From NCBI GenBank assembly GCA_000004695.1, contig CM000150.2:3872001-3936000 (forward strand): 64,000 bases of DNA, read 5' to 3'. The position numbers and the translations under genes are program-made. The stretch comes from Dictyostelium discoideum (lineage: Eukaryota). Under the pieces are notes generated by a model that was given only the letters and a program-made list of their open reading frames with translations, did no database searches and was not told the DNA's origin. Shown here piece after piece: positions 55,978 to 59,968 of this stretch. How positions within the stretch are numbered: the stretch's first letter is position 1; each line of letters begins with the position of its first letter.

Positions 55978-56008
<31 letters not shown>

Positions 56009-56022
56009 TTGTTAAAAATATA

Positions 56023-56095
56023 TGAGATAGATGGGGATCGAACCCACGACCTAACCCGTGTGAAGGGCTCGTGATAACCACTACACTACTTTCCC
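56023..56095 (-). tRNA. tRNA-Val (anticodon CAC), 73 nt.
   Basis: Sequence GGGAAAGTAGTGTAGTGGTTATCACGAGCCCTTCACACGGGTTAGGTCGTGGGTTCGATCCCCATCTATCTCA. The A box TAGTGTAGTGG and B box GGTTCGATCC are intact. The anticodon stem is AGCCC/GGGTT and the loop is TTCACAC. The acceptor stem has one A.A mismatch and one G.U pair. The D arm is identical to vertebrate tRNA-Val. Confidence 0.65.
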
Positions 56096-56109
56096 ATAGG
56101 CTGGAATGT

Positions 56110-56299
56110 TATCCTAAAATTTTTGGGAATTTTTATGATTCTTTTGTAATAATTTAATAGTTAATATTAATCACTATCAATCGGACCGCATCAATAAAAA
56201 GAAGACTCGAAAAATTCAGCCACAACTGGAACTCGAAACTCATGACCATAAAAATCCCGGAACACTTCATACCATACTGCTCATATAACACCAACTACT

Positions 56300-56339
<40 letters not shown>

Positions 56340-56340
56340 A
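56110..56340 (+). mobile_element. Possible retroelement 3' remnant: an approximately 180-bp GC-richer segment ending in a poly(A) tract of at least 40 nt plus an (AATAAT)n run. It begins about 15 to 50 bp upstream of tRNA-Val, on the strand opposite to the tRNA.
   Basis: Composition shift at ..caatcggaccgcatcaataaaaagaagactcgaaaaattcagccacaactggaactcgaaactcatgaccataaaaatcccggaacactt.. followed by a long A run. This location is typical of TRE5-type insertions upstream of tRNA genes. No ORF is retained. Confidence 0.3.
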
Positions 56341-56498: not shown

Positions 56499-56688
56499 CA
56501 AATAAACTCTCCTAGAACACACTCAAATTGAGTGATGTTATTAAAAAAAAAAAAAAAAATAATTTAATGTGAGAGACCCTGTAAAAAAAAAAAAAAAAAA
56601 ACTAAAAATAAAATGAGATCTAGCATCTCAAGGAGAAGCAACTAATAATTGCGTTATCCAATTCAAAAAAAAATTTGTAATAATTTAT

Positions 56689-56745
56689 TGAACCCACGAC
56701 CTAGCCCGTTTAAAGGGCTCGTGAAAACCACTAAACCACTTTCCC
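56689..56745 (-). pseudogene. tRNA-derived fragment: 5' part of a tRNA-Val-like gene, truncated in the T loop. It is a duplicate of the 56023..56095 copy with about 12 bp of identical upstream flank (ggctggaatgtt on the + strand).
   Basis: Sequence GGGAAAGTGGTTTAGTGGTTTTCACGAGCCCTTTAAACGGGCTAGGTCGTGGGTTCAA.. diverges from the intact copy in the D and anticodon loops and lacks the 3' T-stem and acceptor. Confidence 0.45.
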
Positions 56746-57079
56746 ATAGGCTGGAATGTTATAGGTGGATTTACAAATTTTTATGTTTTTAGTTATCCAA
56801 TTCAAAAAAAATAAAATTTTTATGGTGGTTTCTTCTCTTTCATTGTAAATTTGACACACAAGTTGTTCTAATGTATATCCAAAACTCCATAGTTGATCCA
56901 TATTCAATCATTACCAAGCTTTTTTACATTGTATTCATTAAAACACACAACTATAAAATTAAAAAACCGTGAATATGGCTACTATTTATATTTATTTATT
57001 TATCTTCAACTGTTTTCAATATATTCTTGATAGCTTTGTGTTGGTATAATTTCTTTGGATAGTTCATCTGAACATTGCA

Positions 57080-57391
57080 TCATATAGCCAGAAACCGATC
57101 GGTTCCAATCTTGCTGGCCTTTAGAATATAACTGATTTTTTGATACAACCCCCAACATACCAACTCTATATTACCTTTGATATAACCCTTTTGATTGCTA
57201 AGTCTATTCAAAGACATTTGGAAAACACGTTCATCAATATCAATTTTACGGGCGTACAACATTATAATCCCACCAAGTTTCCATTTACCTCTTTGTTTCA
57301 CATACAAATCTACTAAATCTTCTATAGTAATATCATGATCATATTTTTCTATTTTACCATTAATTACCTTTTTTTTATTTTTTCTAGTTAG
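57080..57391 (-). other. Orphan ORF fragment, probable decayed mobile-element or orphan gene piece. It encodes ..INGKIEKYDHDITIEDLVDLYVKQRGKWKLGGIIMLYARKIDIDERVFQMSLNRLSNQKGYIKGNIELVCWGLYQKISYILKASKIGTDRFLAI*
   Basis: GC-richer open frame with no ATG start, bounded upstream by an in-frame stop. It lies within a region that carries TE remnants. Confidence 0.25.
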
Positions 57392-57455
57392 AAACTATGG
57401 TGGGAATTAAGTAGAAGTTAATTCAATGAAGATAAAGTATTTTCAAAAAAAAATT

Positions 57456-57821
57456 TCAGAATAAATGACATTGTAACAACTGGTGGTCGGTGTCATCAGT
57501 GTTAGTTTTTCCTAATGATTTCTTTATTGTGTTGGTTATTGCTGCTGAAGTTATTGGTGTTGTAATGTTGGGTGATGATGGTGGTGTCGAATGGTTATTT
57601 AATTGTTGTTGAGATTGTTGATTTATTAATTGAATGTGTTGTTGAAGAAGTTGATTTTGTTTATCTATTACCTGTTGCTGTTCCCTTATTTGACGTAGCT
57701 GTTCATTGAAAGTTGATACCTGTGGTTGTTGTTGATGTTCCTCATTATCCTGTTGTTGCAATTCGTCATTATCAATATCTCCATTATTATTGTTGTTGTT
57801 ATTATTATTATTAGTTGACAT
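57456..57821 (-). CDS. Small Asn/Gln-rich coiled-coil protein, 121 aa. It may be a complete small gene or a first exon.
   Basis: ATG-initiated [60 protein letters not shown].. with Dictyostelium-style codon usage. No homology is recognised. Confidence 0.35.
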   Translation of the reverse strand: MSTNNNNNNNNNNGDIDNDELQQQDNEEHQQQPQVSTFNEQLRQIREQQQVIDKQNQLLQQHIQLINQQSQQQLNNHSTPPSSPNITTPITSAAITNTIKKSLGKTNTDDTDHQLLQCHLF

Positions 57822-57964
57822 TCTTTTTTTTTAATTATTTAATAAAATTTGATTATTTATTATTATTAATTTTATTTATTGTTTTATTATTATTGAATTT
57901 ATTTATTTTATTATTAAAATAAGTGATTAATTATTTAAGAAATAAATGTACACATGTATTTAAT

Positions 57965-58100
57965 TGATGACCGTAGCCCTATCGCGTTTTTATTATTTTA
58001 TATTTTTTTTTATTACTGAGGTTGAATTAGAAACCTGGTTTTCTTTTTATAGTCCTCAGATTTGAGCGAACTCAAATCTGTTAACTACTCCAACCTCAGT
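57965..58100. repeat. Nested inverted-repeat structure. Outer arms are gccctatcg / cgatagggt. Middle arms are ctgaggttg / caacctcag. The inner palindrome is gatttgagcgaactcaaatc.
   Basis: Arms compared directly; it is GC-richer than the flanks. Confidence 0.55.
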
Positions 58101-58626
58101 CGATAGGGTTAGATCCAATTTAAACTACAATATTATATTATTTTAATTTTATTCTAATTTATTATTATTTTCTTTTTAATTAAATTATTTTTAAATTTAT
58201 ATTATTTCGTATGGTGATTTTGTGTGTGACATTTTTAATATCTGGTATCTAATATCTATTATGAAAACTTTTGTGAAATTCAAATTAAATTTTTTTTTTT
58301 TTATTTTTTTTTTTGAGTTTATTATATAAAATGAAACAATTTATTAAAATAAATTGTTAGTAATAATTAATATTGAATTATTAATTCAATATTAATAGTT
58401 ATTTTTAAATGTTCTGTTTAGAACATTTCATAAAATTAAATATATATTAGTATTAACAAGATATTTTTGAGATCTTGTTACAGACATTCCTTGTAGAATC
58501 TTGTTCCCTTCTTGTTTTCACTGAGAGCCATTTTTATCTGTTCCAATTTGCAGAACTTTGCATTATACTTATAATTGGTTCAACATTACAAAACTCTTTT
58601 CCATTTTCATCGCGATACTTGATATC

Positions 58627-59600
58627 TTAGGTGATACTATTATCTATTCTATTTTCGGAGAGTGAGTTTAGCTTATCAGATCTTTTAACGAATTCGACCA
58701 TGGTAAAGGCACATCTATTTTGAAAATCATCACAGATCTTTTCTAAAGCTTTTTTAGTTAAACTATAAGTTCCTCTTCTACCTTGTTTTAAATGTTTTTT
58801 TGATTTTGTAAGTGCTCTTGCAGCAACTGTCTCAGTATAAAGTGTACCTTTTTTAAATCTGTGTGTGTAATTATTATGAAAAAAAAAATTAATATTATTA
58901 TAACTATTAAATAATTATAACTATAATAATAAATATAATAATAAAAAATAAAATATTGAAAGAAAATAATGACTACTTACAAACACATTATACACATTTT
59001 ATATGTATTTTTTTTATAATTTGATAATGGTTGAAATTGTAAACATTCATAACATTGTAAAAAAGTTTTTTCATCAGAATCAATAAAAATATCATTTTTG
59101 TCAAACTATTGTGAAAATGGAACAATTAAATAGTATTCATTTTCAATATTTTCCTTTACAAAGTATGATGATCTTGGATATTTTAAATAATGATCCATAA
59201 TTACTTTATTAATATCAACCCCATAATGTTTACTAGCAATATGTGAAAAATATTGAGTTCGTAAACGACAGCAAACCATACAATAACTATTTGGATCATG
59301 ATTATTAGTTTTTCTTTTTTTACCTATTCTAATTGATTCTTGATCTTTTTCAACTGATACTTTATATGGTGATGGTGAAGAAGATGATGGTGATGGTGAT
59401 AGTGATGGTGATGGTGATGGTGATGGTGATAGTGATGGTGATGGTGATGGTGATGGTGATGGTGATGGTGAGGATGTAATTGTTTTATTACTATTATCAA
59501 TTGCTTCATTATTAATTTTATTATAATTTATACTACAACTATTATAAATATCTTGTTGTGATTTTTTATTAAAATAAAAAGAAGTACCAAACTCTTCCAT
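58627..59600 (-). pseudogene. Two-exon gene encoding a Cys/His-rich protein with BED-type zinc-finger-like motifs, interrupted by an in-frame TAG. Exons 58981..59600 (TAG at 59106..59108) and 58627..58858. It is a candidate hAT-transposase-derived gene or pseudogene.
   Basis: Exon 1 reads MEEFGTSF..(SP)n..NSYCMVCCRLRTQYFSHIASKHYG..(TAG)..FDKNDIFIDSDEKTFLQCYECLQFQPLSNYKKNTYKMCIMCL. Its donor is TGT TT|GTAAGT. Exon 2 follows the acceptor acacacag|A and reads FKKGTLYTETVAARALTKSKKHLKQGRRGTYSLTKKALEKICDDFQNRCAFTMVEFVKRSDKLNSLSENRIDNSIT*. The C-x2-C-x10-H-x5-H spacing fits a BED finger. A 54-nt GTAAAG..AATAG interval (59161..59108) could remove the TAG if it is spliced. Confidence 0.4.
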
Positions 59601-59785
59601 ACTATTCTCTCTAATCTCTTGGTTTTCTTTTTCTATTTTTTCATTATATTCATCTTTTGAAAAAGATGTTTCTGGTCCTGAAGGATAAACAAATTTTGGT
59701 GAAGAATTTTTATTTATTTTTGAATTATTTTTATTTTTTTAAAAAGAGGCATTATATAAAATTTCTTTTAAAAGAATAAATAATT

Positions 59786-59968
<183 letters not shown>

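Follow-up and report, generated by a model that had tools for sequence, protein, structure and literature searches.

The families phrog_1035, phrog_3322 and phrog_3118 comprise phage proteins annotated 'endonuclease VII', 'endonuclease' and 'HNH endonuclease', with examples such as YP_009004717.1 of Achromobacter phage JWAlpha and YP_010105076.1 of Acinetobacter phage XC38. Homing endonuclease genes are classically found between the two halves of an essential gene that has been split. In the zf-BED fingers (PF02892) of hAT transposases, the Pfam consensus spacing from Cys to His is roughly 16 residues. Among the DNA transposons of Dictyostelium discoideum, Tdd-4 and Tdd-5 of the Ginger2/Tdd superfamily have 5-bp target-site duplications (TSDs) and TGTNR...CA termini (PMC2836005).

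We analyzed a window of 64,000 nucleotides from chromosome 1 of D. discoideum AX4, which has a G+C content of 15–36% and contains Asn/Gln-rich ORFs. The initial annotation had described the stretch 58627–59600 as a two-exon gene, with a BED-type zinc finger pointing to a hAT transposase. We are confident that this stretch represents instead the central part of a dead, transposon-disrupted and Dictyostelium-specific gene, which is related to phage homing-endonuclease-like proteins. The features of the locus are compiled in the table below. Transposable elements are abundant around the gene, as had been stated before: a retroelement fragment is located further downstream and a 1-kb transposon within the gene itself.

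Table. Features of the pseudogene and its surroundings (window coordinates)
Feature	Coordinates	Strand	Remarks
Reverse-transcriptase fragment of tRNA-targeted retroelement, DDB_G0269956	55053-55940		exact protein match
tRNA-Val(CAC)	56022-56096		downstream of pseudogene
Whole unitary pseudogene, 2.75 kb	57006..59752	-	collinear with orthologous loci L007 and L002; architecture from relatives P0019 and P0029
Ancestral start ATG	59752-59750	-	now out of frame; from L007 alignment
Start-codon region with 20-nt insertion relative to L007	59714..59752	-	frame shift, TAA after 12 codons
ORF of the initial annotation, 164 codons	59106..59600	-	ends at nonsense TAG 59108-59106
Ser-Pro low-complexity repeat (SP)n	about 59367..59474	-	Ser/Ala/Pro-rich in orthologue
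Junction of 441-bp deletion (relative to L007:10371-10811)	59364..59365	-	
C-x2-C-x9-H-x4-H motif (C107, C110, H120, H125)	59226..59282	-	
54-nt GT..AG interval	59106..59159	-	ordinary coding sequence with nonsense mutation
Nonsense TAG	59108-59106	-	TCT (Ser) in L007
Second Cys cluster CYEC-x16-CIMC	58983..59054	-	zinc ribbon of first phage-type endonuclease-like module
Spliceosomal intron (ancestral intron 2), GTAAGT...CAG, phase 2	58859..58980	-	splice sites conserved in L007
Exon 3, first part: endonuclease-like domain 1	58483..58858	-	two nonsense TAAs inside
Nonsense TAA	58629-58627	-	TAT (Tyr) in L007 and L002
Nonsense TAA	58536-58534	-	GCT in L007, TCG in L002
Non-autonomous transposon in exon 3, 1,011 bp, ends TGTAACAA...TTGTTACA	57472..58482	-	further disabling lesion; 5-bp TSD ATGTC at 58487-58483 and 57471-57467
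Nested palindrome, three arm pairs	57974..58111	-	inside transposon
Asn/Gln-rich ORF (MSTNNNN...), 121 codons	57456..57821	-	leaves 3' end of the transposon without a stop, into flanking DNA
Exon 3, second part: linker, endonuclease-like domain 2, C-terminal tail	57006..57471	-	
+1-nt frameshift in second part of exon 3	near 57453	-	creates TGA
13-nt deletion	57148/57147	-	
Native stop TGA	57008-57006	-	

A gene broken at many positions

The ancestral gene consisted of three exons encoding roughly 700 aa. Its product started with a low-complexity N-terminus, followed by a Cys4 zinc ribbon, a conserved C-x2-C-x9-H-x3/4-H motif and the DHYLKYPR region, and the remainder was made up of two modules in tandem, both resembling a phage-type endonuclease-like protein. 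In the first module a zinc ribbon is joined by a helical linker to a '...RCAIT...SL..NRIDNSITY...NVEP' domain, and the second consists of a better-preserved '...GKC.LSG...SLNRI.N..GY..NIELVC' domain and the tail. The relative P0029, a protein of 280 aa, keeps the intact order of the last exon with domain 1, linker, domain 2 and tail. In the window the second part of exon 3 was recognized by tblastn with E = 2.5e-19 to domain 2 of the paralogue L001, and it was also aligned with L002 and L003. The span of the pseudogene includes one retained intron and the 1,011-bp transposon.

The minus-strand ORF 59600–59106 reported previously does exist, neither end of the proposed gene being native. The ATG at 59600 is new and lineage-specific, the corresponding codon in L007 being TTG, and the ancestral start codon lies further upstream. 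The TAA at 58627, which had been taken as the end of the gene, reads TAT (Tyr) in the orthologues. The Ser-Pro repeat was found as described and lies in the same ORF.

We determined the lesions by base-level alignment of the window with L007, L002 and L003. L007 is the locus of P0019, a protein of 588 aa from another isolate labelled D. discoideum, and L002 derives from D. cf. discoideum. At the N-terminus P0019 starts with MPTFKKYKKSSPNFVYPSG, whereas the window gives MPLFKKIKIIQK followed by a stop and then ...SSPKFVYPSG in a different frame. With the 441-bp deletion the gene lost the terminal part of exon 1 together with intron 1 and its first zinc ribbon (CYCC-x16-CVPC), which is kept in the paralogue L001/P0001. 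The fourth Cys of the remaining ribbon stems from a 9-nt in-frame duplication that was found in this lineage alone (L007 alignment). At the positions of all three nonsense codons the intact orthologue P0019/L007 has a sense codon. In the second part of exon 3 a conserved Cys is now Trp. These alignments show no fewer than seven independent breaks in the AX4 gene, and the ancestral protein cannot be produced from the AX4 locus any longer; we infer that the locus is functionless. The in-frame TAG in the first exon is present as the initial annotation had noted, being one of many lesions, and an isolated sequencing error behind it is refuted by the number of independent breaks. The suspicion of a decaying gene was supported. 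The locus combines two marks of a unitary pseudogene: a syntenic orthologue that is open over about 470 codons (P0019/L007) and disabling mutations.

We also searched for relatives of the gene. A HMMER scan of 1.84 billion representative proteins gave nine hits, one of them a spurious repeat protein; the other eight all belong to the D. discoideum complex or to read assemblies, with P0019 as the best hit (E = 4e-101), a value that places the gene-like signal well outside chance expectation. A word-indexed search returned a single relative, P0001 from 'Dictyostelium cf. discoideum'. Judging from these searches the family does not extend beyond the D. discoideum species complex, with few copies per genome and most of them damaged. 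Both flanks of the gene are collinear between L007 and the window, and L002 is likewise syntenic, the downstream tRNA-Val being included in either case. Altogether the gene was found at the collinear orthologous position in four lineages, and every sampled lineage has damaged it in its own way: the L002 copy carries several stops and has lost the intron region, the L007 copy has lost domain 2, and in the read-assembly contigs L003–L006 a giant internal deletion joins exon 1 directly to domain 2.

Among the gene models predicted automatically for new Dictyostelium assemblies we noticed several artefacts. Those of P0001 and P0018 contain introns that were invented to bypass stops.

The inserted transposon and its nested palindrome

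The insertion in exon 3 is revealed by two empty sites, L007 11684–11688 and L002 10244–10247, in comparison to which the window is exactly 1,011 bases longer. Via paralogues, in other genomes, of the ORF carried by the insertion (MSTNNNN...) we detected a second copy at L008:5164–6327 with the TSD AGTTT and a third at L009:5234–6191 with the TSD AATTG. Homology among the three copies starts and stops at the same bases, and their overall identity amounts to 86–94%. Since all three copies have identical ends and are each flanked by their own 5-bp duplication, the insertion represents a mobile element. Paralogues of its ORF are annotated as the hypothetical proteins P0030, P0031 (DDB_G0271474) and P0032; no domain match was obtained for the 121-codon ORF, which is the only one of the element. 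The automatic gene models of P0030–P0032 are likewise artefacts, in which the transposon ORF is fused to flanking DNA.

The nested inverted repeat that had been reported beside the gene is real, its location however being within the transposon and hence inside the last exon of the same gene. It is formed by the arms 57974–57984/58101–58111, 58015–58041/58074–58100 and 58050–58066/58071–58087, with a folding energy of -46 kcal/mol (z = -7.3 in comparison to shuffled sequences). Within the transposon no internal segment is better conserved than the palindrome, which is nearly invariant in the three copies. The few differences among them break pairs and are not accompanied by compensatory changes, and no Rfam match to the palindrome was obtained at gathering or permissive thresholds. 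Conservation may therefore act at the DNA level, for instance on a putative protein-binding site. With a broken gene on the one hand, and a palindrome that proves to be the core of a transposon inside this very gene on the other, the locus is a case of ordinary genome decay.

The TGT...ACA ends together with 5-bp TSDs are, by analogy with Tdd-4 and Tdd-5, the signature of an integrase-type (DDE) insertion. When compared with integrase-type transposons in general, the element has the 5-bp TSD and the TGTNR...CA termini, and it lacks the long TIRs (about 45–300 bp) and a transposase. We consider the element non-autonomous because of its TIR of only 8 bp and the missing transposase; it would be mobilized in trans by a Tdd-like integrase. 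It is at best a non-autonomous relative of Tdd/Ginger2, and it may correspond to thug or DDT-S, small DNA transposons that have been catalogued for Dictyostelium. The published supplementary sequences on thug-S miRNAs contained no match to the palindrome.

A solo LTR was considered as well and rejected, the 1-kb element having a coding-like ORF and being too long in comparison to the known listed Dictyostelium LTR elements with LTRs of 208–390 bp (PMC5006619).

Selection and splice sites

We assessed selection by comparing the window with L007. The dN/dS ratio was 0.56 over 249 codons, which is intermediate rather than about 1, and 0.58 for the part before the TAG. Changes in exon 3 were polarized with L002 as the outgroup: the window branch has a single synonymous change and 10 non-synonymous ones, including two nonsense mutations, and the L007 branch three synonymous and seven non-synonymous changes. 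These small counts fit relaxed constraint and are too few to prove it. One could argue that the ancestral gene is dead, yet that a shortened product or a regulatory RNA is still under some selection, candidates being the 164-aa ORF with its Cys2-His2 motif or transcripts driven by the transposon. The ratio before the TAG, the new ATG at 59600 and the transposon ORF reading out into flanking DNA point in this direction. We nevertheless consider such a residual product improbable: averaging one constrained and one neutral branch explains the ratio equally well, and the preponderance of non-synonymous changes on the window branch in exon 3 speaks against it.

A dead AX4 copy remains the reading that we favor. 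The two-exon junction proposed previously held up in our analysis. The donor GTAAGT at 58980 and the acceptor acacacag at 58859 join in phase 2+1, GT and AG are conserved in L007, the gene model of P0019 uses the identical junction and splicing restores the frames. In comparison to L007 the indels inside the intron are not multiples of three, and those in the flanking exons measure 9 and 3 nt. Our comparison thus supports the view that this intron is genuine.

The situation is different for the rare micro-intron that was suggested to remove the TAG. A 54-nt GT..AG interval does exist, with its coordinates two bases off in the initial annotation and correctly 59159–59106. In L007, GG is found instead of GT and CT instead of AG; 13 of the 17 sense codons of the interval encode the same residue there, and the position of the TAG is occupied by Ser (GKENIENEDYLIVPFTQS). 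The alignment with P0001 passes straight through the interval with its TAG and also through the TAA at 58629–58627. The protein expected after removal of the micro-intron had no exact match among 15 billion catalogued proteins, and exact look-ups of other possible AX4 gene products likewise found none of them catalogued. It is therefore very unlikely that the gene is functional in AX4, with the TAG being spliced out, read through or due to a sequencing error. The interval does begin with GT, ends with AG and has a length divisible by three, and exon indels in comparison to L007 are multiples of three. But L007 lacks both splice dinucleotides, the 18 codons of the interval are preserved as coding sequence in L007 and P0001, and the product of the putative splicing event is not catalogued. 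Even without the TAG, two nonsense codons, the 5' frameshift, the 441-bp deletion, the 1-kb transposon and two frameshifts would remain. The micro-intron is thus refuted, and the interval is explained by a nonsense mutation in the coding sequence of a dead gene.

Phage-type modules and the Cys/His motif

We compared the two modules with phage proteins. The PHROG families matched by domain 2, with E = 1.2e-7 to 3.4e-11, carry the annotations endonuclease, HNH endonuclease and endonuclease VII, the value for the second part of exon 3 in the window being E = 1.2e-7. By tblastn domain 2 retrieved phage 'endonuclease' genes with E of about 1e-6 and 34–44% identity over about 80 aa, and a profile comparison of module 2 with the phage profile by hhalign gave E = 3.6e-16. 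For the first module, ribbon and domain 1 of the window matched phrog_1035 with E = 1.2e-4, and in hhalign the family profile that contains this segment and the phage profile aligned along 104 columns (E = 2.5e-6, probability 89%). The second Cys cluster, which was correctly noted in the initial annotation, aligns with the N-terminal CxxC...CxxC ribbon of the phage proteins in hhalign. A direct comparison of module 1 with module 2 is weak (hhalign probability 3%), their relationship being supported through the phage profile alone, and the link of module 1 to the phage family appears moderate. Four of the five phage homologues that we examined are located between the halves of split essential genes, namely RNA polymerase in two N4-like phages, ThyX in a crAss-like phage and DNA polymerase in a coliphage. 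We regard common ancestry of the gene with phage homing-endonuclease-like genes as demonstrated at the level of sequence similarity, and its product would be a putative nuclease, for which a His-Me (beta-beta-alpha-metal) fold is a candidate.

No Pfam family, including Endonuclease_7 and HNH, was matched by the amoeba proteins or by the two phage homologues. Since neither group matches Pfam, the label 'endonuclease VII/HNH' is to be read as annotation only. PDB searches with single sequences and with profiles gave chance-level matches, and AlphaFold models of the conceptual gene product and of domain 2 reached pLDDT values of 40.7 and 41.6, which makes them unusable.

A conserved Cys/His motif is indeed present, with the spacing C-x2-C-x9-H-x4-H instead of the x10 and x5 given earlier. 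It is common to the window, P0019, L001 and P0025, the final spacing in P0025 being x3. Its gap of nine residues between Cys and His is shorter than that of zf-BED, so that the BED-type spacing assigned to it does not apply. We carried out the HMM search for zf-BED, hATC and DUF659 that had been recommended, and none of the three was found in the window protein at E<=10 or in P0019, P0001, P0022, P0025, P0029 and P0020 at E<=1. The motif had no Pfam zinc-finger match either, and scans of the conceptual protein and its parts against NCBIfam and Pfam yielded no credible family, NCBIfam being empty. TIRs or 8-bp TSDs, which might have been expected around a transposase gene, do not flank the gene, and in L002, L007 and L003 the gene and the flanking DNA are collinear. 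Apart from the 5-bp duplication of the 1-kb insertion no TSD was detected. That the gene is a decaying or domesticated derivative of a BED-finger hAT transposase is hardly credible at all, as the conserved Cys2-His2 motif at 59282–59226 and the transposable elements in the neighborhood are outweighed by the negative domain searches at permissive thresholds, the x9/x4 spacing, the lack of a DDE or dimerization domain, the lack of TIRs and 8-bp TSDs at a position that is syntenic in four lineages, and the homology of the C-terminal two thirds to phage endonuclease-like proteins.

The main value of our analysis is hence a correction: the locus is a transposon-disrupted pseudogene and not a gene derived from BED/hAT or bearing a micro-intron. 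As a modest wider point, an amoeba that feeds on bacteria harbors a phage-type endonuclease-like module in the form of a decaying family with multiple copies, which would lend itself to a small case study on how genes are acquired horizontally and lost again. The family may have begun as a selfish or horizontally acquired endonuclease gene. A more far-reaching scenario, which we put forward only tentatively, would be a small nuclear gene family of the D. discoideum complex that arose from a horizontally acquired phage or bacterial homing-endonuclease-like gene. Duplication would then have created the tandem modules, extra zinc-binding motifs would have been added by fusion, introns would have been gained, and each lineage would now be losing the family independently. 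As a separate matter, the 1-kb palindrome element would be an uncatalogued non-autonomous transposon moved by a Tdd-type integrase.

In comparison to known systems, the gene shares with the zf-BED fingers of hAT transposases a Cys2-His2 arrangement, which is probably zinc-binding, and membership in a multi-copy protein family; it differs by the missing HMM match, the missing catalytic or dimerization domain and the missing 8-bp TSDs. The inserted element resembles Tdd-4 and Tdd-5 in TSD length, termini and host species. In contrast to these transposons of 3.8 kb with TIRs of 145–297 bp, it measures 1.0 kb, has a TIR of 8 bp and encodes no integrase-like transposase. The phage proteins and the amoeba modules have in common the N-terminal CxxC...CxxC ribbon, a basic helical linker and the C-terminal motifs 'L..LY..Q.GKCA', 'SLD/N-R-I-D/N..GY' and 'NV/I-Q/E-.V'. 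Unlike the phage genes, the amoeba family is found in a eukaryotic nuclear setting with spliceosomal introns, and its copies are not located between the halves of split essential genes. Its proteins contain two tandem modules plus an extra zinc ribbon, the Cys2-His2 motif and a low-complexity N-terminus. Module 1 has diverged strongly, with TY in place of GY and an insertion before NVEP, and in module 2 part of the 'N..K' motif is missing. With respect to its decay the gene conforms to the general class of unitary pseudogenes hit by transposons, showing nonsense mutations, frameshifts, deletions and a transposon insertion along with independent damage in sister lineages. Its sole particular within this class is that the damage is a different one in every sampled lineage.

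Reading frames and gene models

Since the Asn/Gln-rich ORF of the transposon, a 1,011-bp non-autonomous element inserted in exon 3 of the pseudogene, contains no stop within the element, each insertion creates a distinct chimeric ORF with the flanking DNA. The hypothetical proteins P0030, P0031 (= DDB_G0271474) and P0032 are three annotated examples of these chimeras. In the D. cf. discoideum assembly, the automatic models P0001 (paralogous locus, L001:10001-11441) and P0018 (orthologous locus, L002:10001-10525) have introns placed over the in-frame stops and frameshifts of pseudogene copies; one example from L001 is the stop within 'C*ACC'. Such 'hypothetical proteins' are in part artefacts.

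Phage homologues and isolate divergence

The phage homologues of the endonuclease-like module did not match any Pfam family. At L010, L011, L013 and L014 they occupy the gap in split genes for RNA polymerase, ThyX and DNA polymerase, with one half of the gene on each side, a position suggesting that they are homing endonucleases.

The isolate carrying the orthologous locus L007 (assembly GCA_054859355.1, labelled D. discoideum) shows about 90% identity to AX4 in the coding region 59364-58483 and 80–84% in the flanks. This divergence is far above within-species expectation, and the isolate may therefore represent a cryptic species.

Features of the region and related phage loci (window coordinates unless indicated)
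Feature	Position or record	Remark
RT zinc-binding-domain ORF DDB_G0269956	55053-55940	downstream of tRNA-Val
Real tRNA-Val(CAC)	56022-56096	
Short retroelement fragment	56150-56340	poly(A) tract at end; ~50 bp upstream of tRNA-Val
Truncated tRNA-Val-like copy	~56690-56760	region 56687-56812 compared with 56008-56150
Asn/Gln-rich transposon ORF	57456-57821; L008:6001-6432; L009:6001-6452	
Long (TAA)n microsatellite	~59790-59950	directly upstream of ancestral pseudogene start codon
Phage loci L010, L011, L013, L014	NC_055823, NC_023556, NC_055880, NC_023593	

tRNA-Val and its surroundings

The truncated tRNA-Val-like copy has the 5' flank 'aacattccagcctatgggaaagt' in common with the real tRNA-Val(CAC), and the segment 'ttttttgaattggataac' is duplicated with it. 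Neither ARAGORN nor Rfam called the copy, and only one tRNA is present at the corresponding place in L007. A 150-bp segment at 56525-56673 is probably another dispersed repeat; it shows 86–91% identity to L001:7066-7190, a segment that precedes the paralogous gene by 2.8 kb. Retroelement remnants flank tRNA-Val on both sides, and the poly(A)-ended fragment upstream occupies a TRE5-like position.
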